Shown here one piece after another: positions 1,673 through 36,153 of a stretch of DNA of 40,960 nt. The notes below the pieces were generated by a model, which was given only the letters and a program-made list of their open reading frames with translations, was not told the origin of the DNA and did not search any database. A program made the position numbers and the translations under genes. Within the stretch, counting starts at the first letter, position 1. Each line of letters starts with the position of its first letter. The stretch comes from Batkoa obscura (Eukaryota): positions 1-40,960 of the forward strand of contig JASVEC010000148.1 of assembly GCA_030770535.1 (NCBI GenBank), in the 5' to 3' direction.

Positions 1673-2252
1673 TTAGACCTGTTTCTCTAGTTCATGGGCT
1701 TTCATACATTTCTTTGTTGCTAAATGACGATCAAAAAATATCTTTCCTATAAAATCCTATATTGCAAGGTTTACAGTGGTATTTCTGTTTATTAGTATGT
1801 GATCCACGGTGACGCTTTAGTACATATTTTCGATCAAATATTTTCCCACAAATATCACATTGATAGGACATAGATCGATTTCCTTTATATGATTTTATAC
1901 TCCACTCTCTATCTCTATTATGACATATTATATCATTTATTTTCATAGTTGATAGTAAATATGCAAATGGATCAGGGTTATAATATCCGTGGTAAAAGAA
2001 CTTATAACGTAGGTTTGTTGGAGTAAAATTACTTTTTAATTCCACCATTTCGGATTCATTGAAGCATGTGTTTGAAGGAACTGATAAAGGGGATAAAGTA
2101 TAATTGTCAAATACAGGTTCTACAAGGGTGAATGTAGAATAAGCCTCATTTACATAAGATGTATAATAGGGGTATAAGCTCAGATCAGGAATAAACTCAG
2201 GTGAAGTAAGTTGGCTACTTGTATCATCTGTACTATATAAGATGTTGTACAT
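1673..2252 (-). CDS. Zinc-finger transcription factor, paralog 1, with a +1 frameshift in a T6 run near the 3' end (pseudogene or sequence error)
   Basis: YQCDICGKIFDRKYVLKRHRGSH (C2H2), then YHCKPCNIGFYRKDIF*. Removing one base from the run at 1733-1738 restores DRHLATKKCMKAHELEKQV* (stop 1673-1675, 192 aa), matching the intact paralog at 20642. Confidence 0.85.
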
Positions 2253-4652: not shown

Positions 4653-4949
4653 TTAAGAATTCATTTTCTTTTGAGCATCTCCTTTCAATTTATCAGCTTT
4701 ACCTTCAGCTTGCATTTGTTCATTACCAGTCATGGAGCCGAAAGTATCTTTCATACTTCCTTTCATTGAGTCTTTTGATCCTTCAGCATAACCTTGAGCT
4801 TGAGCAGCTTTATGTTCAGCATCACCTTTGGCTTGCTGAGCTTTACCTTCGGCTTGCATTTGCTCATTACCTAAGGCCCAACCGACATTTTCCTTGATGG
4901 AGCCAACGGTACTTTCTTTGGTGGCGTTAATTTTAGATGGTTCTGGCAT
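4653..4949 (-). CDS. CsbD-like small stress protein (98 aa, two CsbD-like repeats)
   Basis: Repeated G.KE.VG..LGNEQMQAEGKA...KG motif; TATATAAA about 55 nt upstream. Confidence 0.85.
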   Translation of the reverse strand: MPEPSKINATKESTVGSIKENVGWALGNEQMQAEGKAQQAKGDAEHKAAQAQGYAEGSKDSMKGSMKDTFGSMTGNEQMQAEGKADKLKGDAQKKMNS

Positions 4950-5063
4950 TTTGATTTAGTTTAATTGATAGTTTTATAATATTTAGGAAAGAATTTGAGT
5001 AGTTTATATACTTTTTATTTTCAACTTACTTTAATTTTCAATTTATCTATCGTATAGTAATCA

Positions 5064-6176: not shown

Positions 6177-6249
6177 TAAAAGAAAATTGAAGGAGATAAA
6201 AGTATATAAACGATCAATTATATAATAAATAAATAAAAATCAATTGAAA

Positions 6250-6546
6250 ATGCCAGAACCATCTAAAATTAACGCTACTAAAGATACTACCATTGGTACC
6301 ATCAAGGAAAATGTCGGTTGGGCCTTAGGTAATGAGCAAATGCAAGCCGAAGGTAAAGCTCAACACGCTAAAGGTGATGCTGAATATAAAGCTGCTCAAG
6401 CTCAAGGTTATGCTGAAGGATCAAAAGACTCAATGAAAGGAAGTGTCAAAGACACCGTTGGTTCCGCCATTGGTAACGAACAAATGCAAGCTGAAGGTAA
6501 AGCTGATAAATTGAAAGGTGATGCTCAAAAGAAAGTGAACTCTTAA
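6250..6546 (+). CDS. CsbD-like small stress protein (98 aa), inverted paralog of 4653-4949
   Basis: ATG at 6250 (MPEPSKINATK); near-identical to the minus-strand copy. Confidence 0.85.
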   Translation: MPEPSKINATKDTTIGTIKENVGWALGNEQMQAEGKAQHAKGDAEYKAAQAQGYAEGSKDSMKGSVKDTVGSAIGNEQMQAEGKADKLKGDAQKKVNS

Positions 6547-6705
6547 ATATTTATAATAAAAACACTAGTTATATAACTTTTTATTTACTATTATTAGAAC
6601 TGTGGTTTTAATTTGATGTCAGTTTTATGATTGACATAAATGATGAGGTCATCAAATATAATAATATATAAACAAAAGAAACAAGCAAGTCTTTTATTTT
6701 TAAAA

Positions 6706-8158
6706 ATGAGTCATTTATTAAAGTTGGGAAAAGAAAGATTAATAAAAGGTGTTGGTAGAATGAGTGAACTAGTTATTGATAAGGGAAAAGGATGCTATGT
6801 TCATGATATGATAAGTGGTAAAAACTACTTAGATTTTACTTCAGGTATTGCAGTCACTAGTACAGGCCATTGTCATCCTAAAGTAGTTGCAGCTATTCAA
6901 GAGCAAGCTAGTAATTTGATTCACTCACAAGCTAATATCCATTTACACCCAAAGATTGTTGAGCTCAGTGACAAACTGACTACGGTTATGCCTAATAATG
7001 AGCTGAATAGTTTTTTTATAACCAATTCTGGAGCTGAAGCAGTAGAAAACTCAATTAAACTAGCACGTAATATAACCAAGAAGAAGAATGTGATTGTTTT
7101 TCAAGGATCTTATCATGGCCGTACATTTGGTACTATGGGGTTAACAACTTCTAAAACTATTTATTCGAAATCTTTTGCACCTTTTATGCCGGGTATTTAT
7201 ACTTGTCCTTATCCTTATTCAAGACAAATAGGCATAGATATGGATGAAGACCAATTAAATGAGTATTGTATTAATCAATTGAAATTGCTATTGAAGCAAC
7301 AAAGCGCACCGGAAGATACAGCAGCGATATTAATTGAACCTATATTAGGCGAGGGAGGATATGTACCAGCTAACAAGAGATTTTTACTTGAATTAAAAAA
7401 TATTTGTAAGCAAAATGATATAATGTTTATTGCAGATGAGGTACAATCTGGTTTCGCTAGATCTGGGCATTGGTTTGCTTCAGAGTGGGCTGATCCTCAA
7501 TTACCGGATATTTTAGTTATGGCTAAAGGTATTGCTTCCGGGTTCCCTATCTCTGCAGTAGCTACTAAAAAACATTGGTCAGATCTTCAAGTACCAGGAT
7601 CTATGGTAATATTATAATGGTTTTTTAACAATAGCCTTTGATTATTATTTATTAGGGAGGTACATACGCAGGTAATCCAATCGGGTGCGCTGCAGCTATA
7701 GCTACTATTGATGTATTGAAAGAAGAAAATATATTAAATAACGTTAATCAGAAGTAATTGTCTAGTATTTATATGTGCATCATATTTTATTTAGCTTGAT
7801 AGATCGGAATATATCTTTAATAGATTAAATAAAGAGCTACTTGAAATAGTAAATAAGTTTGGATATTGCATTGATGTTCGTGGTAAAGGCTTGATGATTG
7901 GGATTGAGTTTGTTCATAAAGGTATTTTATAAAAGCGTCTCTATTTTACTGTTTAACATCAATACGTTAGATAAAAAAGAAACCAAATTAGCCTCAGAGA
8001 TATCTCAATATTGTTTAAATCATCTAGATATGTTGTTGATGACTACTTCAGTCTATGATACTTTGAGATTAATGCCAGCACTTATTATTTCTGATAGAGA
8101 AGTAGAAATCGCTGTTGATAACATTTTGATTGCAGCTGAGAAGTGTTTAAATAAATAA
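6706..8158 (+). CDS. Class-III PLP-dependent aminotransferase (4-aminobutyrate/acetylornithine aminotransferase-like), 434 aa, 4 exons
   Basis: Exons 6706-7605, 7656-7753, 7803-7921, 7971-8158 splice in frame at GT-AG. Motifs [42 protein letters not shown] (PLP lysine), [21 protein letters not shown]. Confidence 0.92.
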
Positions 8159-16089: not shown

Positions 16090-16680
16090 ATGATGTATAA
16101 TGTACCTTATAGTATAAACAGCACAGATAAGCAGCTTAAATCATCTGAATTTAATCCCATTTTGGCTTTACATCCTTATAAGGCACTTTATATGAGAAAA
16201 ATTTACCCAGATTTCACACAATTTGGGCCAGTGTTTGATGACCATGTTTTGACTCCTTTCTTTCCTTTACCTATCACTTCTTCTAATCTATGTACCAATG
16301 GATTAGAAATGATGAATGTAGAAGACAACTTTATTTTAATGAACTCGTCTTTTGATTCGCCTTGTGGTGGATATTATAATATTGATTCTAAAATTTTCGA
16401 TAATTCTATGTCAAACATGAAGTTAAATGATACAGCATATCATAATAAAGGTCATGAATCTAACTTAAAGGCATCTAAAGAAAATTAACTCATAGTTTAC
16501 CAATGTGATATTTGTGGAAAGGTATTTGATCGAAAATATGTACTAAAGCGTCATCATAGATTACATATCAATAAATGAGAATATTACTGTAAACCTTGTG
16601 ATATGGGATTCTACAGGAAAGATATTCATGATCATCATTTAACAACAAAAAAATTCATGAGATCTCATAAAATAATTTAA
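16090..16680 (+). pseudogene. Zinc-finger transcription factor, paralog 2, pseudogene
   Basis: Homology continues in frame past TAA (16486-16488) and TGA (16576-16578) through YQCDICGKVFDRKYVLKRH and YYCKPCDMGFYRKDI to TAA at 16680; the terminal Cys is replaced by Phe. Confidence 0.9.
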
Positions 16681-17651: not shown

Positions 17652-19483
17652 ATTTAGCTCTTAAAAAGGCACTTGAATTATTTTTATTTTTCAATTTTTA
17701 CTAGCCTAACTTAAACCAGTAGGAAATGGTTTTCAATATGACATCCTTAACCGCTAGATGTTGAAGCTATTAGATAATCTGAAATGAATTAAAGTGGGAC
17801 TTTTTTACTTAAAATCTCTATTGATAAAGACTAATCAGTCTTAATCTCCAAGTTGTAGTTAATTTAGACAATTAAAATCCCTTATTTTCTCTCTCTAATA
17901 CTCCTCCTAAAGATGTACATTTACCAAAGGCTAGCCGTGAGTCTATCTAAATGTCCTCTGAAGAGAAGGTTCAGATAAAAATCAGTGATAATGTAAATTT
18001 CAAGGAGTTTTTACATAAATAAATGATCCAAAAATATATTTAAAGCTTTTTAAAATAGTGATATAAATATACTCATTCTAAGATATATAGAATGATTATT
18101 TTGAGTTTGTCCCCAAGTTTTACTACCACATATAACAAAAATTTTAAATTCAAAGGGTACAGTAATTGATATGTGACATTACATATTTCTTACCCGAACA
18201 ACTTATTAACGTATAAGCTGTTTATTAATTTTTTTAAATGTTATTTACAGATTATACCTAAATATTGGAGTCTCAGAACGAATACTCTTGTCAAATATGT
18301 GCTCCCAAAAATTATTTCATCCAAATTATAAACATGCATATATACATGATTAAAAAATTTGTCTTTAGTTTAATTTAGATTTATATGACATCAAAGTATA
18401 ATACTCTTTTAAGAGCTTTACAATTAAAATTGGCACCTCTTTATTTTAAAAGGTTTACTTAAAACTCAACGCTTTTTGTATTTAAAATTTGTAAGGACTT
18501 CTTAAGTACTTTTCGTTATTTATTATGCCAAATATATTGATTTAACAAATTATATAATTATTTGTACCCCATACCTCGCTATTTCTTTTATTCATGTGCT
18601 CGATCAGTAGAATGTTTTTAAATGATTTAATATCCTTTGTAATTTCTTTTGCGTCTATATTCTTTATATAGATTTAAGTCATTGTAGCAAAGTTCAAATT
18701 AATTAAATTAAGGATGGCTCAATCGCTTTTAGATAATAAATCTAATTCCCTAATAGTAGCAGCTGTTACGTAAAAAAGTCAATGGCTTTATTTTAAAAGT
18801 GTAGTTGAAATTTATAATGAGATCTCTTTTAAATTGTTTTTTTAAAACCAGAACAATTTTTTAAACTTATTTCTTTATAATGATATATTGTAGTACATTT
18901 CTTCCTATTTACTTTTTTACTAAATAATCTGATTTTTTATATAGTATTTGGGTAGATTTTATTTTGACTATTACTATTACTATTACTATTGTTATTAAAA
19001 AGCATATTTGCTAATTTGAACTAGCATGTCATTTATCTATATATTTTTCTATAACCCTAGTTGAAGCATAGGCCCAGTCTCAGACATTTTAATTCAAGGA
19101 GATTGTAGCTTGAAGCAAAGACTAATGCTTTGATTTAATTGAGTAATATACTGGTTGAATTATATACTAAAAAAACCGAATTTTAAGAGGGTTATAATAT
19201 AGATATTTTTAAATTTATAATAAAATCGGATAGTTTGTCAACTACAAGAATTAAACCGTTAACTGTATCTAAAAAGAACAACCCAGCTAATTTAAAAACT
19301 TCGTATACTTATATAGTAGTAAATAGCAGTAATTTTAAATAAAGTTTATTTATGAGAAAAATTGAAAATTCAAGGGTTTATCTTATTGTTTAATTGAACT
19401 TATGCTGTAAATAGAAAACATGTCAATGTTTAAATTTTATTTTAAACATTCAGTATTCCTTTATAAATTTGTGAACACTATAT

Positions 19484-19577
19484 GGGGAAGTTTTTTTTGA
19501 TTTCATTATTTTTCCCATTTTTTAAGCGCTATTTGAATGGAAAGATTGTTAGTAAAATTCTTAAAAAATACATCCCC
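19484..19577 (-). mobile_element. MITE family 1 copy
   Basis: GGGGAAGTTTTTTTT...AAAAAATACATCCCC; flanks ATAT/ATAT. Confidence 0.9.
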
Positions 19578-20641
19578 ATATTATGAATCATGACTTTTAT
19601 TTTAGATATTTATAAAAAAAAGTAGTGGCTTATTTATATAATAATTAGTCGTTTTTCAATGAACTATTTTGGTGGAAAACACATATTTAAACAAATAGAT
19701 TAAAACTATATATAATTATAAGTGATAGTTTAATGTCAAATCATCAGAAACAAAAATTTAAATAAACTTAATCCAAATATAAATATTACCGTTTGTTATT
19801 AAATCACAAATGATACGTATTTTGAACAGATCATTTAACGTTTTAATTATTACACTTGTTACATTTATTATGTAAGAGAAGTACTATGCTTTGTTAATCT
19901 CAAACAAGTTTATCAATTTGATTATTAAATAGTTGCTGCATACATAGAATAATCATTTCATATTATACTTTATGTTAATCACAGTTTTTAATATTGAAAG
20001 TATAATTTGATAAAGAAATTTTTGATTGGGCTTTATCATCCTTAATTTAAATTAATTATGTTAAATATAACTTGCATATAAACACCGAGGTATTGAAAAT
20101 TAAATTAAATTAAAACCATAAACTTAAAAACTGGCATTTTTATTGTTTCAAATCTTATGGGTTTTTTAACTATTCTTTTAAGGTGATTAAAATTTTTAAA
20201 TAATTGCAGCTTTAGATTTAGTGGCAATTTCAATAATCGCATTACTTCAGCCAATGATAGTCACAATATACAGTCACAAACTCGGACCAATTTTCTATAG
20301 CATCAACTTTTTACTTCACTAGCATTAGTAACCTGGATTAAAGTTGACTAAACTTACGAAAAAGGATGTGGTATTTGTTTTAATTCTTTTTTTGTTTATG
20401 GGCTACAAAAACGTGAAAAAGTGACTTTTTTCTTTATTTGTATGTATCGGAAACTCGTTTTATTTTAGTAATAATTTTTAGAATTAAATTAGCTTTGGCT
20501 TTGTTATTTTAATGCTAAGAGTTTATACTTTAGGATAGTTATACATCACCACAATATATTATATTGGAATAAAATAGTATAAATAGGATGGGAAGCCCGA
20601 TCACTTTCATCAAATTTAATAAATTACGAAATTAGTTTAAC

Positions 20642-21229
20642 ATGAATGAAAGTCTATCTATGAATATGCTCATCAAAGACGGCATTAAGCAGCTTTATTT
20701 TACTCCTAATTTCAATTTATATTATTATAATACCCCTTATGTAAATGAAGTTTATCCTAGTTTTGTACAAACAGAACCGATGCTTGATAATTACATCTTA
20801 CCCCCTTTATCTCCTTTATCGGGTTCCTCTTCTAATGCATATTTTAATGATTTAGAAATGATGGACGTAAAAGATAACTTTACCATGATGAGTCCTCCTT
20901 TTGAGCCTTTTTACGATGGATACTACAATTTTAGTCCTAATACATTTGAGCCTTTATTACCAACTGTGAAATCAAATGATATAATATATAGTAACCCAGG
21001 TAAAAGAAGTAACATGAAAGCATTCAGGGAAAATCGACCTATGATTTATCAATGTGATATCTGTGGAAAGGTATTTGATCGAAAATATGTACTAAAGCGT
21101 CATCGTGGATCACATACAAATAAAAGAGAGTATTACTGTAAACCTTGTGATATGGGATTCTACAGGAAAGATATTTATGATCGTCATTTGTCAACAAAGA
21201 AGTGTATGAAAGCCCACAAACTCACATGA
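20642..21229 (+). CDS. Zinc-finger transcription factor, paralog 3 (intact, 195 aa)
   Basis: C2H2 finger YQCDICGKVFDRKYVLKRHRGSH and a second finger YYCKPCDMGFYRKDIYDRHLSTKKC; Pro/Ser/Tyr/acidic N-terminus; intronless. Confidence 0.9.
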   Translation: MNESLSMNMLIKDGIKQLYFTPNFNLYYYNTPYVNEVYPSFVQTEPMLDNYILPPLSPLSGSSSNAYFNDLEMMDVKDNFTMMSPPFEPFYDGYYNFSPNTFEPLLPTVKSNDIIYSNPGKRSNMKAFRENRPMIYQCDICGKVFDRKYVLKRHRGSHTNKREYYCKPCDMGFYRKDIYDRHLSTKKCMKAHKLT

Positions 21230-22594: not shown

Positions 22595-24460
22595 ATTTAT
22601 TGTTTTCATAGCTAAGTTTCTCTAACTAGTAAAATTGATTTAGGATTTTATAATTATAGGTTGTAATATACATTTAAATGAATAAAGTTATAATATTTAT
22701 AAAAGTACTTGAAAAAAACGTCATAATATGCTAAAAAGATTACTAATTAAAGGTGAGAACATCCAATTTCCTAACACCGACTCCAGATTAAATGCCTTTA
22801 AAATAAACAATAAAGACATGAAAACCTTTATTTACCTTCGTCTTTGTCTCTTTACACTCTTTTAGTATATATGTAAAGCACGTGGGGAATAGGGCTTTCA
22901 AGGATTTTTAAAAAGCTAAACAGTAAATATTATTAAGCTTGTAGTCCTTTTTGCTTCAAATTTATTTTACATTCAGATTAGCAATAAAATGAAGAAAGGT
23001 GGATATTCTAACTTTATTCCACCATTATAAATATGATAAAGGAGAGTTGTAATTCCATAACTGCTTCAAAGCTTCAAAGCTTCAATATACTTTTAGATTG
23101 TGCTCCTGGCCTTTTATAGACAAGAAATATTTTTGGAAATAAATCCTATCTATAGAAAATTCCATATATTCTTTGTAACATATTAAACTAATAACAATTG
23201 AGTAATTTTGTAAAAAATATAATTAATATTTAAACTTTTTAATACATATGTAATAACAAACAGTCTTGAAATTCAATCATATGCTTTGTAAAAACAACTT
23301 TTTTATAACTTTTACATGCAAAATTACTTTTAGACATAGCTTTTACCTCTCTATTTTATGAATAAAAATTTTAAACATGCAAATTCCCACTTGTTTTTGC
23401 TTATGACTTGCTTCTTCAATCCAAGAACAATTGTACTATTAACACATCTTTGGGATTATTTTTACTCAAGCAAAATGCTACTTGTTTATGAGTTTTAATT
23501 GGCACAATATTTGTAAAATTTATATATTGAAGTTATGTACAAATATCCTAATTCCTCAATTATTCACAAGTGTTTTTTACCTATGAATAGCTAAAAGCCT
23601 GTGATATAAGAGCCAACTCTACTTGAGATAAGCTATATTTCTATTGCTTGATTTTGAGAAAAAGGTTATCAGCACTTCGAAAATATGATAATCAGCTTTA
23701 AATCCTCTTGTATTGATAATTATCTAAACATAAACAATACATAAACCATCTATTTTTAGGATCTTTTAACTGTTTGTATACCTAATAGTTTTAATAAATA
23801 TCAAGTATTCAAAAATTAATACTGATATCACATGAAGCTTTTGGCATATATTATTCGATAATGTGAATAGGTGCTAAGATGTTTTTTATTATAAGCATAT
23901 GTGCGACATGTTTATAGATTATTACTAAAGAATTGTTATATACTTACTGAGGTAAGTAATGATATGCTTGGTATCAATAAACTTATATTTGTCTTTAAGC
24001 TAAGTAAGGACTATAACACTTTCAATAAATGGTTACATAATTGATAATAGGTGAAATGAGTTCAATTATTTTGTTGCAATATATTTCATTTGTTATTAGA
24101 AATCGCCTTAAAAGGCATTAAAATTATAATTTTAGAAAGAAATAGGTAGAAAGATATATTGTTATAAAATGATATCACCCACTAAAGTGGTTATTTGTTA
24201 TGAACCTTACCCTGAGTTAATCCAAATAAGAGCAATATTCACGATTTGAGTTTGTAAATAGTAACATCAATTTTTGTTACAATTTTATTAAAATTTGATG
24301 TTTTTGACTAAACTTATCCCAAGCTATTTATAGAAAGATTATACTTTTGGATAATGGAAAAAAATTGACACTACATTTAACCATGATTTAAAAATATATC
24401 GCTTATAAATAAGTACATACATATGGCCTTTTAAAAATAATAACGATAAAAATAACAACG

Positions 24461-25516
24461 ATGAAATTTCTTATTTTTTTATTACTCCTTGGTATTTCAG
24501 TAAGTGAAAAGACTATACCAAAAAAGAAACTAAATAAACAGTTAGAGACTTATGAGAAATTTATGCGAAAAGATGTTTATCAGGGTTTGATAAATCAAAG
24601 AGAAGAAATGAAAAGAATTGTGAAACATAAGAAGGAAAGGTCAATTAAAGACGGATTTAATATACAACATAGTGATCAAGTTCGTTTGCTTTCACAAGCT
24701 ATTAATTTAACTGAAATGGAAGATTTCCTGTTAAAGTATTCCCAATTTCCCACCAAGTTCTTTTTATCTAAATGGAGCCATGATGCTTCTGAATGGTTGT
24801 ATAACTATATTCAACTAAAAGTTAAAGACTCTAATTATACTGGAAAGGCTGAAGTAAGTAGGTTTGAGCATTTATTCGATCAAAATAGTATAATTGTTAG
24901 AATTGACGGAAAAGATGAAGTATTAAAAAAAGAAATTGTCATATTAGGCTCACACTTGGATTCCATTAACGATGATAATCCAATAGATGGGGCTGCGCCT
25001 GGTATGGATGATAATGCTAGCGGCATGGCTTGTAATTTACAAGTGCTAAATATAATATTAAAGAATAATATTCAGTTGAAGCGTAGCTTAGAATTTCACT
25101 TCTATGCCGCAGAAGAAGTGGGATTATTAGGTTCATATAGCGTTGCTTATGATTATTTCAAGAAGGATAAAAAGGTCACTGGTATGATTCAAATGGATAT
25201 GATTGGTCATTTATCAAAAAACAATGCTATTGCTATCATCAATGATTATACAGATAAAGGTTTAAACTTAATTTTAGCTGCTTTAATTCAGCATTATTTG
25301 GATTATAGTTATACAATTATAGAATGTGGATATGAGTGTTCTGATCATGCTGCTTGGGATTTTTTTGGATTCCCATCCTCTTTTCCTACTGAAGATTATG
25401 AGAATCCATTTAAGCACACTAAAGTTGACGATTTAAGTCATATAAACTTAATTCATTTCAAGGAATTCACTAAGTTAGCATTAGCTTTTGCTGTTGAATT
25501 AAGTATCATTCGTTAA
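24461..25516 (+). CDS. Secreted M28-family leucine aminopeptidase (351 aa, intronless)
   Basis: Signal peptide MKFLIFLLLLGISVS; Zn-ligand motifs GSHLDS, PGMDDNASG, YAAEEVGLLGS, QMDMIG, CGYECSDH, NPFKHT. Confidence 0.92.
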   Translation: MKFLIFLLLLGISVSEKTIPKKKLNKQLETYEKFMRKDVYQGLINQREEMKRIVKHKKERSIKDGFNIQHSDQVRLLSQAINLTEMEDFLLKYSQFPTKFFLSKWSHDASEWLYNYIQLKVKDSNYTGKAEVSRFEHLFDQNSIIVRIDGKDEVLKKEIVILGSHLDSINDDNPIDGAAPGMDDNASGMACNLQVLNIILKNNIQLKRSLEFHFYAAEEVGLLGSYSVAYDYFKKDKKVTGMIQMDMIGHLSKNNAIAIINDYTDKGLNLILAALIQHYLDYSYTIIECGYECSDHAAWDFFGFPSSFPTEDYENPFKHTKVDDLSHINLIHFKEFTKLALAFAVELSIIR

Positions 25517-25608
25517 ATAAAAGACTATTTTATTAGTTTATTAGTTTATTTGTATTCTTTATCACTATCATGTTAATTTTTCTATTTATCGAAATAACTA
25601 CTTTATGT

Positions 25609-25705
25609 AAGAGTGTTTTTTAGCTTTATCACTATCTCCATTTTTTAAGGGCTATTTGAGCGGAAAAATCGTTAGTAAAATTCTCAAATATATAAATAGA
25701 TTTCT
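25609..25705 (-). mobile_element. MITE family 1 copy (subtype shared with 36055-36153); marks the end of the duplicated P450 3' flank
   Basis: CTCCATTTTTTAAGGGCTATTTGAGCGGAAAAATCGTTAGTAAAATTCTCAAATATATAAATA is the exact reverse complement of part of the 36055 copy. Confidence 0.85.
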
Positions 25706-26521
25706 ATATAGTGCAAAGCTTTCAATTCGGTATCTTTGGTTTTACCTTTTTAGAGTAAAATCTATCAAGATCATAAATGTCAAGGTTGTGCTATTTGATA
25801 CAAAATATGACTCTAAGATCGACCCACTCTCATTGTTCATAATCATTATATTCAAGTAGTTAATTCGGGATAAAGTTTATTGCTATATTTTGCTTTATGA
25901 AGATGTATATACATAGAATCATTTGTTTTGAGAAACAAAGCTTTTTAATCTTTAAGATGAAATAAACAAAAGCTTTAATAAATAAAAGTACAAATATCAA
26001 TGTTCAAAGCATCTATCCGTTATGCTAAGTTAAAAAGAGTGTTAAATGTTTGATCATAAATGCAATATTCAAGCTAAGAGAAAAGTAAGTTTACAAAGAA
26101 TTGAGCTTGTTTTAAGTATAATAAAGCATAGTCTTAACTAACAATAAATAAATAAATAATAAAAATATTTAATCCAGGGTTCAACTTTTCCCCGGTTTTA
26201 ATTCAATATAAAAGCAGTTAATAAGTGTAAGTAATATGAAAACGATAATTATGTTTTTTCTGTTTAAGTTGACTATAACACTTTTCAAATTTTGATCTTC
26301 TAAAAATAGAATAAAACAAATGAACTTTTTTTTAGTTTGATAATTTATAAACATTTTGTACAAAAATATTTCCCTTTGAATCTTGTAAATTTGATTCTAA
26401 ATTTATTGTAGAAATTATTATTGTCAATCATGTTTTTGAAATCATCCAAATAAACAAACAAAAATAAAAAAATAAGAATTTAGTTTTAAAATTTAATAGT
26501 ACTATAAAGAATCCTAAGTGA

Positions 26522-28024
26522 CTATACTAAAACTCGGAAGTTTAAATTATAATCTTTTGGTAATAACAAGAAACTATCAGCGAGGCTAAGAGGGGCACCT
26601 TTAGATTGAGGAGCATCTTTATCATAAGACACATGATATCTAGAAAGTATAAGGCTTAATACTAGCTTCTGTTCTAAAATCGAAAAATTTAGACCAATAC
26701 ACGATCGAGTTCCTGCACCAAATGGCATCCAAAGGTAAGGATCAATTTTATCATCATTCATAAATCTTTGTGGATTGAAAGTATTAGGATCTTCCCAATT
26801 ATCTGGATCACGATGAATTGAATAGATATCAATGTTGATAGTGGTGTTTGGTGGTACTATAAAACCATTTACTTCAAACTCTTTTTTATTAATACGTTCT
26901 GGCAATCTATTGACTGATGGATACAACCTCATCGTTTCTTTCATAATTGCATAAAGATAATGCATTTCTTTAGTTTGTTCAATAGTTGGAATAACAATAT
27001 CAGATATATCTTTGTTGTTGTATTCATTGATATTCATTACTTTCATTACTTCTTTACGTGCTCTTTCTTGAATATCTGGATTTTGAGCCAAGAAATGTAA
27101 GGCAGCAGACAATGCAAAAGCTGTAGTATCATGACCGGCTAATAAAAATATCATGATGTTGTCACGAATTTCTTTTTCAGTAAATTGAACATCTTCTTCC
27201 ATACTAGCTTTTATCATCAAAGTTAAAATGTCTTCATCAGCTTCACTTTTACATTGATTATTAGCCAAATTAAGTCTCTTTTCTTTCAAAATTGAGTTAA
27301 AGTAACTTTCAAGGATCATTAGTTGATCATAAGCTGGTTTACGAAGCGGATTCCAAGCGTTATCAAAAATGGGAAAAAAGAAGTAGAAAGCTTTAAGCGA
27401 GCCATTTTGAATATAGTTGTAAGCATCGATAAACTCAACATGATCATTTTCAACAGAATTGAAATCTACACCCATAATACCTTTACCCAAGGCATCCATA
27501 GTAATTCTTTGCATATATTTATGAACATCTATATCATTACCATTTACTTTTTCAGCTACTTTAAAAAAGCCTTTAATAGCATCGGTAAATATTTGAGTAG
27601 AGAATTGTTTTTTGAATGGTGGATTTAATACTTTACGATGACGCTTCCATACATTATGATTTGAGAATACCAAATTGATACCCATAAATTTAGAGAACAG
27701 ACTGTTAGGTAATGCTTCAATAGGTATCTCTTTAGGAAAGTTAATAGTATCATTATAAATCATCTTTGCTGCTTTTGGACAAGAAACCAAAACTGTCCAT
27801 AATCCTATATTACTTTCCACTTGTATTTTATGCTTTCTTAATATCTCACCATTGAATGCTTCGATTTTGATGTCGGTTGGTGCTGTATAAAAGATAGCTT
27901 TAATCGAATCTATTAAGCCTCTAGAAGGTAAATGAGCAAGATTACTTGGTTTCTTTAAAAAAAAGAAATAGAAGTAAAGTGCTGGAATCAAAGATATAAC
28001 TAATATAAAAGTTGTTATTGTCAT
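26522..28024 (-). CDS. Cytochrome P450, copy 1 (500 aa, intronless)
   Basis: N-terminal membrane anchor, WKRHR, AGHDTT (I helix), ETMR (ExxR), PQRF, FGAGTRSCIG (heme Cys). Confidence 0.97.
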   Translation of the reverse strand: MTITTFILVISLIPALYFYFFFLKKPSNLAHLPSRGLIDSIKAIFYTAPTDIKIEAFNGEILRKHKIQVESNIGLWTVLVSCPKAAKMIYNDTINFPKEIPIEALPNSLFSKFMGINLVFSNHNVWKRHRKVLNPPFKKQFSTQIFTDAIKGFFKVAEKVNGNDIDVHKYMQRITMDALGKGIMGVDFNSVENDHVEFIDAYNYIQNGSLKAFYFFFPIFDNAWNPLRKPAYDQLMILESYFNSILKEKRLNLANNQCKSEADEDILTLMIKASMEEDVQFTEKEIRDNIMIFLLAGHDTTAFALSAALHFLAQNPDIQERARKEVMKVMNINEYNNKDISDIVIPTIEQTKEMHYLYAIMKETMRLYPSVNRLPERINKKEFEVNGFIVPPNTTINIDIYSIHRDPDNWEDPNTFNPQRFMNDDKIDPYLWMPFGAGTRSCIGLNFSILEQKLVLSLILSRYHVSYDKDAPQSKGAPLSLADSFLLLPKDYNLNFRVLV

Positions 28025-28292
28025 TTTTTTATAATTTGTTTAATCAATCACTGCTTGATTTTATACCTTTTCAGTTAAAATATTTTGTTTTTACTATTTT
28101 CTTCGGCTCCTACTTCTTTCCATCGGACCGTTCCTAATGACCAATTATTAAAAACTATTGAGTTTAGATGATGAATTAAAATTATAACATTTGTTTAGCT
28201 AGCTATGGTTCAAAAATGATAACCCGAGTTACTCTAAAGAATTGTTAAAATTTTAAGCATAGGGTTAAATGTATTTTAATATATCACACCTA

Positions 28293-28445
28293 TTATAACT
28301 CTTTTACGACCTTCTTGACTATCTATTTGCCGCAAAAAATTATGTCAAATTCTGCTAAAATCTAGAAAATAGGCTTTAAAAAAATCTTTATATAAATGGT
28401 TTTACTATAAAATCTATAGCTAAAAGGATCGCAAAAGAGTTGTAA
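28293..28445. mobile_element. MITE family 2 (153 bp), TA-flanked, upstream of P450 copy 1
   Basis: TTATAACTCTTTTACGACC ... GGATCGCAAAAGAGTTGTAA inverted termini; TA at 28291-28292 and 28446-28447; a homologous terminus lies at about 33611-33639. Confidence 0.6.
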
Positions 28446-28648
28446 TAACTCTACTATTGTTGGATGCGTAGATTATCTATTTTCCACTTAAATGTTGAAG
28501 TTTTAAGCATATTGTTCCACACCAAAATCATTAAAGTTTAAGCTGGCCAATTCAAGGGACAATTAATCGGTTTTTGAAACGTTTATACTGAATTTAAAAT
28601 TACCAAATTAGTAAGTTTTATCCAGTAATAAAATTATTTTATACATAT

Positions 28649-28740
28649 GGAAATGTATTTATGTATTTGAGAATTTTACTAACAGTTTTTCCGCTCAAAT
28701 AGCCCTTAAAACATGGAAAAAGTGAAATAAAGAATACCTT
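28649..28740 (+). mobile_element. MITE family 1 copy
   Basis: GGAAATGTATTTATGTATTTGAGAATTTTACTAACAGTTTTTCCGCTCAAATAGCCCTTAAAA; flanks ATAT/ATAT. Confidence 0.85.
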
Positions 28741-29753
28741 ATATGGAATTCAAGAAGTTACAAATTATTTTATTTAATACTACAGCCAATATAGATTATA
28801 CTATCCAAGTTTTAAAGGACTGAAAGATACTTGATTTTCTGAGTTACAAGAATAACGACATTATTCTAAAAATTACAAATGGTACGTTTTTTAAAATTTA
28901 GATTAATTTCCAAGTAAATTCTGAGACCAATTTGGACAATCCCATACAATGTCATTCTAAAACTTAAATTTTTAAATTTGTCTTTAATGTGACAGTTAAA
29001 TCTAAAAAGCTTAAAATTAAATCTCTTTAACTTAAAAAACTTATTTTAATTGTTTCCTTTTCTTGAATAATTGATTTTTCTAACTACATGTTTTATATTA
29101 TTTCTGTCAAATACTTAATGGATATACAATATATAACTGTACAATTATATAAATGTAGTTATCTGACTTTGTTTTGTTGAAATAAAAATAAAAGCAAACT
29201 TTGATAACTAAATTGCGAAATGGGATTTTTGAAAATTTTAATACAATAGGGAGGAGCACACAATATAAACATTGTGATTCGTTTACATCAGTTTTAATAG
29301 CTACTGTGAATTATCGCTTTGTCACCTCCATGATTAATTATAACATAATAAACACTTAAATTGTTGTGGTCTCGAGTTCAGAGACAATCAATCCCATGCT
29401 CTTAGTTTGATTTACTGTGAGAATTTCTAGCTTCATCCCAAAAAAAATTATCTTCTCATTTTGATATTTGTACTTGTCAAAGTATAAAAGAGATTTTGGG
29501 GTATAGTAGCTCGAGGCTTTTTAACTGAGTTATTCCTTGATATCTCACATGTAATAAAGTCGCTAAGTTTTCTTAATGGTATTTTATATTAGTATCGTCT
29601 ACTCTATTTGTCTTATATGGTCCGTAGCCTATTGCGTGGTATTCTCTGTAATTCAAGTCTATCTTAGTCACATAAATTAAGACCTTTTGACTTACAGTAT
29701 AGTCAACTAGGCAATAACTATTTTTGACTCCAACCACTGAGTATTGGATTTCA

Positions 29754-29801
29754 CAGTGCTCAAAAAATAGAGAAAGTAATGAAACCAAAAAAGGCACTCT
29801 C
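29754..29801 (+). mobile_element. MITE family 1, 3' half only
   Basis: CAGTGCTCAAAAAATAGAGAAAGTAATGAAACCAAAAAAGGCACTCTC matches the right half of the consensus. Confidence 0.6.
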
Positions 29802-29987
29802 AAATCTTGATAAAATAGTCAAATTGTTTAATAAATCTTATAGAATAATTTTATTTTGCTCATTTTGTATTTTTTGTACTTTTGATAATAGACTGTAATG
29901 TTAATATTTTATTATTATTACTTATTTTTGAATAATCATATTGATTTTGTATTAAATCTAAAACTTTCACATTCGTTAAAAGAATAT

Positions 29988-30085
29988 GAGGGATGTATTT
30001 TTTTGCTTAAGAATTTCACTAACAATTTTTCCGCTCAAATAGCCCTTAAAAATGGAGAAAGTAATGAAACCGAAAAAATATCTCT
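29988..30085 (+). mobile_element. MITE family 1 copy
   Basis: GAGGGATGTATTTTTTTG...TTTCCGCTCAAATAGCCCTTAAAAATGGAGAAAGTAATGAAACC; flanks ATAT/GTAT. Confidence 0.85.
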
Positions 30086-30242
30086 GTATCTTTATTTAAT
30101 ATAAACTATAGTTTTTACTTAAACACTTTATACTTTATTATATTAAATTTCACATAAACATTTGTATTTTTTATTTTGGAGAGAATTATAAAGGCAATAT
30201 GAGTTGTTAAATATAAATTAAAAGTACTAATAAAGAGAGAAT

Positions 30243-30336
30243 GGGGATGTATTTTTGCATTTCAGAATTTTACTACAACCTTTCCACTCAAATAGTGTTT
30301 AAAAAATAGAAGTAATAAAGCCAAAAAAACATCCCC
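30243..30336 (+). mobile_element. MITE family 1 copy
   Basis: GGGGATGTATTTTT...AAAAAAACATCCCC; flanks GAAT/GAAT. Confidence 0.9.
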
Positions 30337-31117
30337 GAATAATAGTTATAATAAAAGAGCTTTTTTATATTTTGATTATTAGCTAATTTAGCCATAGTTT
30401 AAGAATACTCATTAAGTTATCTAAACTTATATTTGATGAAAATCAAGGATATCGGAACATATTAATGTTTTTAATAAAAAGAAGCTTTATATGTAATTAA
30501 TAATTAAACTACTTTTATTATTAAAACCATAAAGGTATTAAAATGGAAAGCAAAATTAATAAAAAAATTAAAACAATTAAATATTTAAGAAAAACTTTTA
30601 TTTTCATTTAAAATTATTCAATTATTAGATTATCTTATAAATTTTATAAACTAGCAGCTTCTTTATATCATAATTGGAATAAATTATGATTATAAATACT
30701 AGAAAATATAATATAATAGTTTAAACTATTCCATTTCTAATGCTAATAATATTCGATTTTAATTATTATTAAATAAAAAAAATAAAAAAATAAAAAATAA
30801 ATAATAAATAATAAATAAACAAAAGTATGAGTATAATAAAGCTTTATGGTTTTAATAATAAAAGTAGTTTAATTATTAATTACATATAAAGCTTCTTTTT
30901 ATTAAAAACATTAATATGTTCCGATATCCTTGATTTTCATCAAATATAAGTTTAGATAACTTAATGAGTATTCTTAAACTATGGCTAAATTAGCTAATAA
31001 TCAAAATATAAAAAAGCTCTTTTATTATAACTATTATTCGGGGATGTTTTTTTGGCTTTATTACTTCTATTTTTTAAACACTATTTGAGTGGAAAGGTTA
31101 TAGTAAAATTCTGAAAT
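30259..31117. repeat. Inverted duplication: 276-bp arms (30259-30534 and 30842-31117), 307-bp AT-rich spacer
   Basis: Arms are reverse complements (paired coordinates sum to 61376); one mismatch seen (TACAACC vs GGTTATA). Confidence 0.95.
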
Positions 31118-31234
31118 ATATGGGGATGTATTTTTGTTTAAGAATTTTACTACAACCTTTCCACTCAAATAGTGCTTAAAAAAAATGGAAAAATAATGAA
31201 ACCAAAAAAAACAGCCCCATATAAATACATTTCT
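31040..31234 (-). mobile_element. Chimeric MITE family 1 copy containing a nested insertion
   Basis: 31040-31117 is the reverse complement of the 30243 copy; 31219-31234 is the reverse complement of the start of the 36055 copy; the flanks (ATTC, ATAT) come from the two different parents. Confidence 0.8.
31122..31218 (+). mobile_element. MITE family 1 copy nested inside another copy
   Basis: GGGGATGTATTTTTG...AAAAAAAACAGCCCC; ATAT duplicated at 31118-31121 and 31219-31222; the empty site is visible at 36061-36075 and 25685-25698. Confidence 0.92.
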
Positions 31235-31905
31235 ATATAGTGCAAAGCTTTCAATTCGGGTATCTTTGGTTTTACCTTTTTAGAGTAAAATCTATCAAGA
31301 TTATAAATGTCAAGGTTGTGCTATTTGATACAAAATATGACTCTAAGATCGACCCACTCTCATTGTTCATAATCATTATATTCAAGTAGTTAATTCGGGA
31401 TAAAGTTTATTGCTATATTTTGCTTTATGAAGATGTATATACATAGAATCATTTGTTTTGAGAAACAAAGGTTTTTAATCTTTAAGATGAAATAAACAAA
31501 AGCTTTAATAAATAAAAGTACAAATATCAATGTTCAAAGCATCTATCCGTTATGCTAAGTTAAAAAGAGTGTTAAATGTTTGATCATAAATGCAATATTC
31601 AAGCTAAGAGAAAAGTAAGTTTACAAAGAATTGAGCTTGTTTCAAGTATAATAAAGCATAGTCTTAACTAACAATAAATAAATAAATAAAAATAAGAAAT
31701 TTAATCCAGGGTTCAACTTTTCCCCGGTTTTAATTCAATACAAAAGCAGTTAATAAGTGTAAGTAATATGAAAACAATAATTATGTTTTTTCTGTTTAAG
31801 TTGACTATAACACTTCTCAAATTTTGATCTTCTAAAAATAGAATAAAATAAAGAAATAAAATTTTAGTTTTAAAATTTAATAGTACTATAAAGAATCCTA
31901 AGTGA

Positions 31906-33408
31906 CTATGCTAAAACTCGGAAGTTTAACTTATAATCTTTTGGTAAGAATAAGAAATTATCACCAAGGCTAAGAGGGGCACCTTTAGATTGAGGAGCAT
32001 CTTTATCATAAGACACATGATATCTAGAGAGTATAAGGCTTAATACTAGCTTCTGTTCTAAAATCGAAAAATTTAGACCAATACACGATCGAGTTCCTCT
32101 ACCAAATGGCATCCAAAGGTAAGGATCAATTTTATCATCATTCATAAATCTTTCTGGATTGAAAGTATTAGGATCTTCCCAATTATCTGGATCACGATGA
32201 ATTGAATAGATATCAACCACAACCCTAGCGTTTGGTGGTACTATAAAACCATTTACTTCAAACTCTTTTTTATTAATACGTTCTGGTAATACACGGATTG
32301 ATGGATACAACCTCATCGTTTCTTTCATAATTGCATAAAGATAATGCATTTCTTTAGTTTGTTCAATAGTTGGAATAACAATATCAGATATATCTTTGTT
32401 GTTGTATTCATTGATATTCATTACTTTCATTACTTCTTTACGTGCTCTTTCTTGAATATCTGGATTTTGAGCCAAGAAATGTAAGGCAGCAGATAATGCA
32501 AAAGCTGTAGTATCATGACCAGCTGCTAAAAATACCATAATCTCATCATGAATTTCTTTTTCAGTAAATTGAACATCTTCTTCCATACTAGCTTTTATCA
32601 TCAAAGTTAAAATGTCTTCATCAGCTTCACTTTTACATTGATTATTAGCCAAATTAAGTCTCTTTTCTTTCAAAATTGAGTTAAAGTAACTTTCAAGGAT
32701 CATTAGTTGATCATAAGCTGGTTTACGAAGCGGATTCCAAGAGTTATCAAGAAATGGGAAAAAGAAGTAAAAAGGTTTAAATGAACTATTTTGAGCATAA
32801 TTGTAAGCATCAATAAACTCAACATGATCATTTTCAACAGAATTGAAATCTACACCCATAATACCTTTACCCAAGGCATCCATAGTAATTCTTTGCATAT
32901 ATTTATGAACATCTATATCATTGCCATTTACTTTTTCAGCTACTTTAAAAAAGCCTTTAATAGCATCGGTAAATATTTGAGTAGAGAATTGTTTTTTGAA
33001 TGGTGGATTTAATACTTTACGATGACGCTTCCATACATTATGATTTGATAATACTAGATTTGTACCCAAAAATTTGTACATTAAACTATTGGGGAATGCC
33101 TCAACAATCATCTCTTTAGGAAAGTTAATAGTATCATTATAAATCATCTTTGCTGCTTTTGGACAAGAAACTAAAACTGTCCATGATCCTGTATTACTTT
33201 CCACTTGTACTTTATGCTTTTTTAATATCTCACTATTGAATGCTTCGATTTTGATGTCGGTTGGTGTTTTATAAAAGATAGCTTTAATCGAATCTATTAA
33301 GCCTCTAGAAGGTAAATGAGCAAGATTACTTGGTTTCTTTAAAAAAAAGAAATAGAAGTAAAGTGCTGGAATCAAAGGTACAATTAATATAAAAGTTGTT
33401 ATTGTCAT
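31906..33408 (-). CDS. Cytochrome P450, copy 2 (500 aa, intronless)
   Basis: AGHDTT, ETMR, PERF, FGRGTRSCIG. Confidence 0.97.
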   Translation of the reverse strand: MTITTFILIVPLIPALYFYFFFLKKPSNLAHLPSRGLIDSIKAIFYKTPTDIKIEAFNSEILKKHKVQVESNTGSWTVLVSCPKAAKMIYNDTINFPKEMIVEAFPNSLMYKFLGTNLVLSNHNVWKRHRKVLNPPFKKQFSTQIFTDAIKGFFKVAEKVNGNDIDVHKYMQRITMDALGKGIMGVDFNSVENDHVEFIDAYNYAQNSSFKPFYFFFPFLDNSWNPLRKPAYDQLMILESYFNSILKEKRLNLANNQCKSEADEDILTLMIKASMEEDVQFTEKEIHDEIMVFLAAGHDTTAFALSAALHFLAQNPDIQERARKEVMKVMNINEYNNKDISDIVIPTIEQTKEMHYLYAIMKETMRLYPSIRVLPERINKKEFEVNGFIVPPNARVVVDIYSIHRDPDNWEDPNTFNPERFMNDDKIDPYLWMPFGRGTRSCIGLNFSILEQKLVLSLILSRYHVSYDKDAPQSKGAPLSLGDNFLFLPKDYKLNFRVLA

Positions 33409-33880
33409 TTTTTTATAATTTGTTTAATCAATTACTGCTTGATTTTATACTTTTTTTAAAAAAAATTACTATTTTCCTCGGTTTCTATTTCTTTCCATTA
33501 TACTTTCTTAATGACCAATTAAAAACTATACTAAACCAAAATTATGGCACTTGTTTAGCTAGCTATAATTAAAAATAATAACTCAAATACTCTAAAAATT
33601 GCTAAAATTTACCACAAAAAGGTCGCAAAAGAGTTGCAGTAGGTGTGGTATATAAAAATACATCTAACCCTATGCTTAAAATTTTAGCAATTTTTAGAGT
33701 ATTTGAGTTATTATTTTTAATTATAGCTAGCTAAACAAGTGCCATAATTTTGGTTTAGTATAGTTTTTAATTGGTCATTAAGAAAGTATAATGGAAAGAA
33801 ATAGAAACCGAGGAAAATAGTAATTTTTTTTAAAAAAAGTATAAAATCAAGCAGTAATTGATTAAACAAATTATAAAAAA

Positions 33881-35383
33881 ATGACAATAACAACTTTTAT
33901 ATTAATTGTACCTTTGATTCCAGCACTTTACTTCTATTTCTTTTTTTTAAAGAAACCAAGTAATCTTGCTCATTTACCTTCTAGAGGCTTAATAGATTCG
34001 ATTAAAGCTATCTTTTATAAAACACCAACCGACATCAAAATCGAAGCATTCAATAGTGAGATATTAAAAAAGCATAAAGTACAAGTGGAAAGTAATACAG
34101 GATCATGGACAGTTTTAGTTTCTTGTCCAAAAGCAGCAAAGATGATTTATAATGATACTATTAACTTTCCTAAAGAGATGATTGTTGAGGCATTCCCCAA
34201 TAGTTTAATGTACAAATTTTTGGGTACAAATCTAGTATTATCAAATCATAATGTATGGAAGCGTCATCGTAAAGTATTAAATCCACCATTCAAAAAACAA
34301 TTCTCTACTCAAATATTTACCGATGCTATTAAAGGCTTTTTTAAAGTAGCTGAAAAAGTAAATGGCAATGATATAGATGTTCATAAATATATGCAAAGAA
34401 TTACTATGGATGCCTTGGGTAAAGGTATTATGGGTGTAGATTTCAATTCTGTTGAAAATGATCATGTTGAGTTTATTGATGCTTACAATTATGCTCAAAA
34501 TAGTTCATTTAAACCTTTTTACTTCTTTTTCCCATTTCTTGATAACTCTTGGAATCCGCTTCGTAAACCAGCTTATGATCAACTAATGATCCTTGAAAGT
34601 TACTTTAACTCAATTTTGAAAGAAAAGAGACTTAATTTGGCTAATAATCAATGTAAAAGTGAAGCTGATGAAGACATTTTAACTTTGATGATAAAAGCTA
34701 GTATGGAAGAAGATGTTCAATTTACTGAAAAAGAAATTCATGATGACATTATGGTATTTTTAGCAGCTGGTCATGATACTACAGCTTTTGCATTGTCTGC
34801 TGCCTTACATTTCTTGGCTCAAAATCCAGATATTCAAGAAAGAGCACGTAAAGAAGTAATGAAAGTAATGAATATCAATGAATACAACAACAAAGATATA
34901 TCTGATATTGTTATTCCAACTATTGAACAAACTAAAGAAATGCATTATCTTTATGCAATTATGAAAGAAACGATGAGGTTGTATCCATCAATCCGTGTAT
35001 TACCAGAACGTATTAATAAAAAAGAGTTTGAAGTAAATGGTTTTATAGTACCACCAAACGCTAGGGTTGTGGTTGATATCTATTCAATTCATCGTGATCC
35101 AGATAATTGGGAAGATCCTAATACTTTCAATCCACAAAGATTTATGAATGATGATAAAATTGATCCTTACCTTTGGATGCCATTTGGTAGAGGAACTCGA
35201 TCGTGTATTGGTCTAAATTTTTCGATTTTAGAACAGAAGCTAGTATTAAGCCTTATACTCTCTAGATATCATGTGTCTTATGATAAAGATGCTCCTCAAT
35301 CTAAAGGTGCCCCTCTTAGCCTTGGTGATAATTTCTTATTCTTACCAAAAGATTATAAGTTAAACTTCCGAGTTTTAGCATAG
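33881..35383 (+). CDS. Cytochrome P450, copy 3 (500 aa, intronless)
   Basis: AGHDTT, ETMR, PQRF, FGRGTRSCIG; differs from copy 2 at residues 289 and 419. Confidence 0.97.
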   Translation: MTITTFILIVPLIPALYFYFFFLKKPSNLAHLPSRGLIDSIKAIFYKTPTDIKIEAFNSEILKKHKVQVESNTGSWTVLVSCPKAAKMIYNDTINFPKEMIVEAFPNSLMYKFLGTNLVLSNHNVWKRHRKVLNPPFKKQFSTQIFTDAIKGFFKVAEKVNGNDIDVHKYMQRITMDALGKGIMGVDFNSVENDHVEFIDAYNYAQNSSFKPFYFFFPFLDNSWNPLRKPAYDQLMILESYFNSILKEKRLNLANNQCKSEADEDILTLMIKASMEEDVQFTEKEIHDDIMVFLAAGHDTTAFALSAALHFLAQNPDIQERARKEVMKVMNINEYNNKDISDIVIPTIEQTKEMHYLYAIMKETMRLYPSIRVLPERINKKEFEVNGFIVPPNARVVVDIYSIHRDPDNWEDPNTFNPQRFMNDDKIDPYLWMPFGRGTRSCIGLNFSILEQKLVLSLILSRYHVSYDKDAPQSKGAPLSLGDNFLFLPKDYKLNFRVLA

Positions 35384-36054
35384 TCACTTAGGATTCTTTA
35401 TAGTACTATTAAATTTTAAAACTAAAATTTTATTTCTTTATTTTATTCTATTTTTAGAAGATCAAAATTTGAGAAGTGTTATAGTCAACTTAAACAGAAA
35501 AAACATAATTATTGTTTTCATATTACTTACACTTATTAACTGCTTTTGTATTGAATTAAAACCGGGGAAAAGTTGAACCCTGGATTAAATTTCTTATTTT
35601 TATTTATTTATTTATTGTTAGTTAAGACTATGCTTTATTATACTTGAAACAAGCTCAATTCTTTGTAAACTTACTTTTCTCTTAGCTTGAATATTGCATT
35701 TATGATCAAACATTTAACACTCTTTTTAACTTAGCATAACGGATAGATGCTTTGAACATTGATATTTGTACTTTTATTTATTAAAGCTTTTGTTTATTTC
35801 ATCTTAAAGATTAAAAACCTTTGTTTCTCAAAACAAATGATTCTATGTATATACATCTTCATAAAGCAAAATATAGCAATAAACTTTATCCCGAATTAAC
35901 TACTTGAATATAATGATTATGAACAATGAGAGTGGGTCGATCTTAGAGTCATATTTTGTATCAAATAGCACAACCTTGACATTTATAATCTTGATAGATT
36001 TTACTCTAAAAAGGTAAAACCAAAGATACCCGAATTGAAAGCTTTGCACTATAT

Positions 36055-36153
36055 AGAAATGTATTTATATATTTGAGAATTTTACTAACGATTTTTCCGC
36101 TCAAATAGCCCTTAAAAAATGGAGAAAGTGATGAAACCACAAAAAACATTCCT
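36055..36153 (+). mobile_element. MITE family 1 copy at the outer end of the P450 palindrome
   Basis: AGAAATGTATTTATATATTTGAGAATTTTACTAACGATTTTTCCGCTCAAATAGCCCTTAAAAAATGGAGAAAGTGATGAAACC...AAAAAACATTCCT. Confidence 0.85.

Follow-up and report, generated by a model that had tools for sequence, protein, structure and literature searches.

The window studied here, a stretch of 40,960 nucleotides from Batkoa obscura (positions 1 to 40,960 of contig JASVEC010000148.1, GenBank assembly GCA_030770535.1), contains three intronless cytochrome P450 open reading frames (ORFs) of 500 codons each. Two of them, copy 1 and copy 3, share a nearly identical scaffold and differ mainly in small islands, which lie over five predicted substrate-recognition sites (SRSs), the F-G loop and strand beta1-3. 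This pattern is real and unusually clean. We consider it likely that the two genes are old paralogs whose scaffold has been homogenised by short-tract gene conversion, while selection has kept their pockets apart.

Divergence between copy 1 and copy 3

The two proteins are 91% identical, differing at 44 of 500 residues, while the genes differ at 81 of 1503 bases and 20 codons show silent changes only. An earlier note on this DNA, made from the sequence alone, had counted the same 44 replacements and described them as clumped; alignment and permutation bear this out, as the observed clumping of differing codons was reached in none of 20,000 permutations at the codon level. Likewise, residues 121-204, 224-286 and 296-370 are indeed identical, with silent changes at codons 162, 199, 203 and 296 only, the last being the GCC versus GCT difference before GHDTT that the note had cited. 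At the base level, identical stretches are as long as 222 and 192 bases.

Silent sites were scored only on codons that encode the same amino acid in both copies. Silent-only codons lie beside replacements, with 16 of the 20 within two codons of one, where 19% would be expected (p 6e-9). Silent divergence reaches 18 of 50 sites (0.36) at two codons or less from a replacement versus 4 of 216 (0.018) elsewhere, a 20-fold excess, and a uniform recent duplication predicts 0.9 silent changes beside replacements instead of the 18 observed. Uniform synonymous divergence (dS) along the gene, which the note had named as grounds for abandoning its reading, is thus not what the genes display. Transitions make up 57 of the 81 differences, as in ordinary long-term drift, 16 of the 64 differing codons carry two or three changes, and no GC bias was found at the differing sites (43 vs 40 of 81). 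The claim that silent sites differ inside the patches holds for most islands but fails for the clusters at codons 9-11 and 47-79, which have ten replacements and a single silent change and lack the signature of an old island; in these two clusters and in 371-374, nonsynonymous divergence (dN) equals or exceeds dS.

Substrate-recognition sites and the predicted pocket

The P450 motifs WxxxR, AGxDT, ExxR and FxxGxRxCxG are present (W126, T300, E363, C442), and the Pfam p450 domain was found in copies 1 and 3, the two that were scanned. The AlphaFold model (predicted local distance difference test, pLDDT, 91.8) has an N-terminal anchor helix at residues 2-23 and a fold close to those of BM3 and CYP3A, with a template-modelling (TM) score of about 0.75. 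Sequence and modelled fold thus agree with a microsomal cytochrome P450, whose heme binding, activity and expression are putative. Five public runs that may be RNA contain part of the stretch.

SRS windows were set by applying the definitions in the accessible text of PMC3224734 to the secondary structure of the model. The windows cover 90 of 500 residues and hold 21 of the 44 differences (Fisher 2e-6), distributed as nine in SRS1, two in SRS2, none in SRS3, four in SRS4, three in SRS5 and three in SRS6. In 471 circular shifts by at least 15, the count never reached 21. A first test with generic SRS offsets (23 of 44) was set aside in favor of the model-based windows. Outside the windows, ten further differences divide equally between the F-G loop and strand beta1-3 (394-398). 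The identification of the patches with SRSs by the earlier note therefore stands for SRS1, SRS2, SRS4, SRS5 and SRS6 but not for 394-398, a strand outside the classical SRSs that may, on an assumed numbering, match the Met354 pocket of BM3 (PMC11900375).

In an alignment to CYP3A5 anchored on the conserved Thr and ExxR, residues 292, 295, 371 and 373 correspond to Ile301, Phe304, Ala370 and Arg372, all of them binding residues of CYP3A4 according to PMC6769491. The island residues are therefore predicted to line the substrate pocket, and one chassis would carry two different active sites, as judged from the model. The differing sites are more variable in the family than the average site; however, among the hypervariable family columns within the scaffold blocks only 1 of 75 differs between the copies, and thus low constraint alone does not explain the islands.

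Codon 437 of copy 1 (26714-26716), within the heme-binding motif, encodes Ala, with Arg in copies 2 and 3 and Gly in most relatives, and the resulting charge change likely lies on the redox-partner face.

Flanks and inverted repeat

The flanks of the duplicated unit differ in age. The earlier note had called the 3' flank near-identical, and this is so for the aligned part, in which 12 of 760 bases differ, but about 143 bp are found in copy 1 only. The 5' flanks differ at 35 of 266 bases and by 10 gaps. With 13% divergence plus gaps on the 5' side and 1.6% on the 3' side, two ages coexist in one duplicated unit. The dS of the scaffold (0.018) is close to the divergence of the 3' flank (0.016).

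Copies 2 and 3, which differ at two residues and three bases, lie in the 2392-bp arms of an inverted repeat with three mismatches (Table 1). Its 68-bp spacer is ordinary upstream sequence of copy 3, homologous to the upstream region of copy 1, so that the repeat is shaped as if copy 3 had been duplicated by folding back, with a junction seen in the window assembly alone. The outer ends of the inverted repeat fall in a dispersed repeat roughly 100 bp long. This element (31114-31225) has 15 further matches in the window (e.g., 2600-2704, 19479-19581 and 36050-36148) and borders each of the three P450 units at its outer end; a bin with one copy of it has more than 1000 times single-copy depth in the four DNA runs described below, and the element is therefore very abundant genome-wide. 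A second inverted repeat (30259-31117), with 276-bp arms, one mismatch and a 307-bp spacer at 12% GC, adjoins the large one on its left.

Table 1. Positions of the P450 copies, their flanks and repeats, and the divergence islands of copy 1 in the window; SRS and secondary-structure assignments are predicted, and pS is silent divergence.
Feature	Position	Strand	Remarks
P450 copy 1	26522..28024	-	intronless, 500 aa; ancestral-type pocket
P450 copy 2	31906..33408	-	inverted twin of copy 3; 3 bases apart, codons 289, 305, 419
P450 copy 3	33881..35383	+	derived-type pocket
Island, codons 100-120	27665..27727	-	SRS1, B'/B-C loop; copy 3 at 34178-34240; pS 0.69
Island, codons 205-223	27356..27412	-	SRS2, helix F end and F-G loop; copy 3 at 34493-34549; pS 0.47
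Island, codons 287-296	27137..27166	-	SRS4, N-half of helix I; copy 3 at 34739-34768; pS 0.53
Island, codons 371-374	26903..26914	-	SRS5, after ExxR; copy 3 at 34991-35002
Island, codons 394-398	26831..26845	-	strand beta1-3, no classical SRS; 10/15 bases differ; copy 3 at 35060-35074
Island, codons 481-487	26564..26584	-	SRS6, beta4 hairpin; copy 3 at 35321-35341
Codons 47-79	27788..27886	-	A'-A-beta1; 7 replacements, 1 silent; mosaic in P0057
Copy 1 3' flank	25614..26521	-	1.6% substitutions vs copy 3 flank 35384-36148; ends in dispersed repeat
Copy 1 5' flank	28025..28317	-	13% substitutions and 10 gaps vs copy 3 flank 33615-33880
Inverted repeat	31219..36070		arms 31219-33610 and 33679-36070, 99.9%; 68-bp spacer

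Relatives and polarity

The top full-length relatives come from Neoconidiobolus thromboides (52% and 46% identity), Entomophthora muscae and Massospora (44-46%). Matches of Conidiobolus coronatus to copy 1 reach just 29-32%, below the 40% identity rule for membership in a P450 family, and copy 1 is therefore probably outside the CYP5854-5864 families of that fungus. Comparison with seven entomophthoralean relatives clearly polarised 14 SRS sites, and copy 1 retains the ancestral state at 13 of them; the derived pocket is therefore that of copies 2 and 3. No protein carrying the copy-3 islands was found in protein database searches. A search of 50%-representative proteins returned nothing closer than 51% among the best 150, a metagenome scan gave no relative among 589 pattern matches, and an exact-sequence database had no match for the three P450s and the neighboring peptidase.

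A partial N. thromboides protein, annotated independently (KAI9290508.1, here P0057), is an ortholog that matches copy 1 at all but 5 of 161 residues; by this measure the DNA comes from a fungus very near N. thromboides. P0057 is a mosaic, with copy-1 residues at 9-48, 73 and 100-120 and copy-3 residues at 59, 63, 67 and 75. Its SRS1 is identical to that of copy 1 and is followed by residues 121-161, also identical.

Comparison with independent DNA runs

Contigs from four public DNA runs (X1-X4) were compared over positions 24300-28500 of the window. In every run the common 3' flank appears as one contig, with depths of 2.9-3.3, 2.6-2.7, 2.2-2.4 and 2.8-3.5 times the single-copy level, while the copy-1-only flanks lie near that level; this supports more than two copies in the other runs, with estimates of about 2-3.5. 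Copy-3 islands on the common scaffold also occur in X1 and X2. Strain divergence in the neighboring single-copy region is 0.8-0.9% in X1 and X2, of the same order as the scaffold dS of 1.8% and far below the pS of the islands.

The 27 variant rows listed in the P450 unit comprise 19 with the copy-3 letter, one with the copy-2 letter and seven with the letter of no window copy; in six of these seven, the three window copies agree and the multi-copy contigs of the other runs differ. Such letters, common to the window copies and absent from other runs, are the mark expected of concerted evolution. For example, all four runs differ from the window at the silent sites 477.3 and 479.3 (codon.base). 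Judging by summed depth, a diverged contig of copy-1 type in X3 seems to differ at these sites as well, and the letters common to the three window copies are thus likely derived. The differences between copy 1 and copy 3 resume at codon 481, only 6 bases from 479.3, which argues against polishing at the read level. Codon 419 is Q in copies 1 and 3, and in copy 2 and the main contigs of the four runs it is the E of the PERF motif, suggesting a transfer after the duplication of copies 2 and 3, or an error. The shared letters, Q419 and the P0057 mosaic fit ongoing exchange. A few run-specific letters occur at 397.2, 437 and 59-75; the run-to-run difference at codon 75 was left unused, as it lies near contig ends.

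Possible mechanism and alternative explanations

From these observations we infer that conversion and selection have acted and that the substrates differ. An old duplication would have separated copy 1 from copies 2/3, after which pocket changes in copies 2/3 may have come under selection as a new substrate or regioselectivity was gained. Repeated short conversion tracts would then have reset the scaffold and the 3' flank, with those crossing pocket residues being lost by selection so that islands were left, in which silent differences presumably survive by riding with selected neighboring residues. Conversion may still be running at the timescale of strain divergence, and copy 2 would be a recent fold-back duplicate of copy 3, giving the derived enzyme twice the dose.

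Several points weigh against this reading. Taken alone, the silent-only codons are not significantly clumped (p 0.07). The SRS windows were drawn once the differences were already known and hence not blind, 23 of the 44 differences lie outside them, SRS3 is identical in both copies, and so is residue 119, the aligned counterpart of CYP3A S119 (the BM3 F87 position). The strong polarity skew is limited to the SRS windows and the stricter rule; over all 44 sites and with a looser rule it is 18 vs 10, with 16 ties (p 0.18). P0057 may be an assembly chimera. The run comparison draws on 32 pieces and on 40 of 870 variant rows, and since contigs drop minor variants, a letter that looks fixed may conceal a copy. 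Copy 3 equals copy 1 at all three sites at which it differs from copy 2, for which the chance is 1/8. Finally, the standard proof would be a DNA quartet of two copies by two strains, whereas what is given here on grouping by copy and strain comes from contigs and from P0057.

The earlier note had offered two origins, of which homogenised old paralogs fit every test run, while the cassette alternative gained no positive support from the sites that could be compared. In that alternative, which we regard as unlikely, the duplication is recent (about 2% old) and the islands were imported as short cassettes from distant family members, possibly frameshifted pseudogenes. The near-equality of scaffold dS and 3'-flank divergence speaks for it, as does the concentration of derived residues in one copy type, and further family contigs of about 81-83% identity exist in all four runs (window 26965-27971). 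Some of these contigs have 1- or 4-base deletions and are possibly pseudogenes, although compensating gaps may sit among 19 unlisted rows. However, a distant paralog over codons 372-437 (X3, X4) departs from copy 3 at 8 of the 10 beta1-3 sites listed as well as at 372.2 and 437.1, and is therefore not the donor there; its codon 437 would be Gly, from which Ala and Arg are each one step away. It does have the copy-3 letter at the silent sites 394.3 and 396.3, so that copy 1 also carries derived changes. Moreover, no database protein has the copy-3 islands, the 5' flank is old, and five separate imports would have had to hit five SRSs. An elaboration that seems quite improbable to us is templated pocket-shuffling, in which the inverted repeat would drive frequent short-tract repair, diverged and partly frameshifted family members would donate single SRS cassettes, and strains would differ in their patch combinations on an otherwise constant P450 chassis.

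It is very unlikely that a recent duplication with strong positive selection on the pocket produced the islands without any conversion, the silent neighbors arising from multi-base mutations. Such a scenario may explain the clusters in which dN is at least equal to dS, and the codons with two or three changes agree with it, but it does not account for the silent excess in unchanged codons beside replacements, the transition-rich spectrum, or the letters that are common to the window copies and different in other runs. Similarly, we find it very improbable that one copy acquired its islands, as remnants, by recombination with a diverged haplotype or sister lineage, as in a hybrid or heterokaryon mosaic. 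X3 and X4 do hold two versions of the peptidase region, 0.2-1.2% and 8-11% from the window; nevertheless, the three largest islands differ at 20-32% of bases, above that haplotype distance, and a diverged X3 contig with the copy-1-only 3' segment suggests that the copy types are older than the haplotype split. Assembly or polishing could in principle have created the identical tracts, with copy 2 as a fold-back chimera, because chimeric reads can give rise to a near-perfect inverted repeat around a 68-bp spacer and because individual sites, Q419 among them, could be errors of the consensus. The earlier note had raised cross-paralog polishing itself, and we judge an artefact extremely improbable given the depth of the common 3' flank across four runs, the copy-3 islands in X1 and X2, the copy-1 SRS1 followed by identical scaffold in P0057, and the differences persisting so close to the shared site 479.3.

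Comparison with known systems

Conversion among paralogs except at the SRSs, which stay paralog-specific, is reported for primate CYP2D6/2D7/2D8 (PMC4419802). The Batkoa genes resemble that system as P450 paralogs apparently homogenised outside the SRSs, and since the same pattern has been published for it, the process itself is already described. In contrast to the primate case, the present one is fungal and intronless, its islands span 4-25 codons and stand out when just two genes are aligned, the reading frames of both types are intact, and the comparison is not a multi-species quartet. Divergence peaks are a mark of selection under conversion in red/green opsin exon 5 and in RHD/RHCE (PMC3924837), which likewise show a local peak at selected sites in homogenised duplicates, but in place of the one opsin peak, five or six small peaks here converge on one predicted pocket.

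Region-specific conversion between neighboring P450 paralogs is also known for vertebrate CYP1A1/CYP1A2, in which the converted regions took in SRS1 and SRS5 (PMC3199271). This is the opposite of what we see, and protection of SRSs is therefore no universal rule. In Helicoverpa CYP337B3, recombination of P450 paralogs gives new selected enzymes (PMC6211633), to which the P0057 mosaic may be compared; there, however, two loci yielded a chimeric third gene, unlike the many small islands on one scaffold here. Tandem P450 blooms, with 79% of P450s in tandem, are described for C. coronatus (PMC6032100), a fungus of the same subphylum, and 'gene conversion' does not occur in the main text of that paper. 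We found no fungal case of island-type P450 conversion in the literature covered, from which most subscription journals were absent.

Copy 1 and copies 2/3 thus form a natural minimal pair, in which the changes concentrate on five SRSs, the F-G loop and beta1-3 and on which the SRS concept is directly testable. The residues that selection treats as determinants of specificity are likely those marked by the silent-site islands, beta1-3 among them although it lies outside the classical SRS map, and percent identity would underestimate the age of tandem P450s in these fungi.

Other genes in the window

The window is AT-rich (22-32% GC). An intronless M28 peptidase gene with a predicted-looking signal peptide (24461-25516, plus strand) adjoins the P450s. 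Over its region (24300-25219), X3 and X4 each have two versions, a near-identical one (6/485 and 1/453 differences, respectively) and a diverged one (52/485 and 36/453), which is a matter of a hybrid, heterokaryon or mixed culture. A class-III aminotransferase ORF (6640-7617, plus strand) ends early, probably at an intron. Two short genes, 91% identical and built of repeated GNEQMQAEGKA units (4653-4952, minus strand, and 6244-6546, plus strand), presumably resemble stress-response proteins of a CsbD/LEA-like kind. Three related C2H2 zinc-finger genes lie at 1731-2252 (minus strand), about 16300-16680 (plus strand) and 20642-21229 (plus strand), the middle one having in-frame stops.

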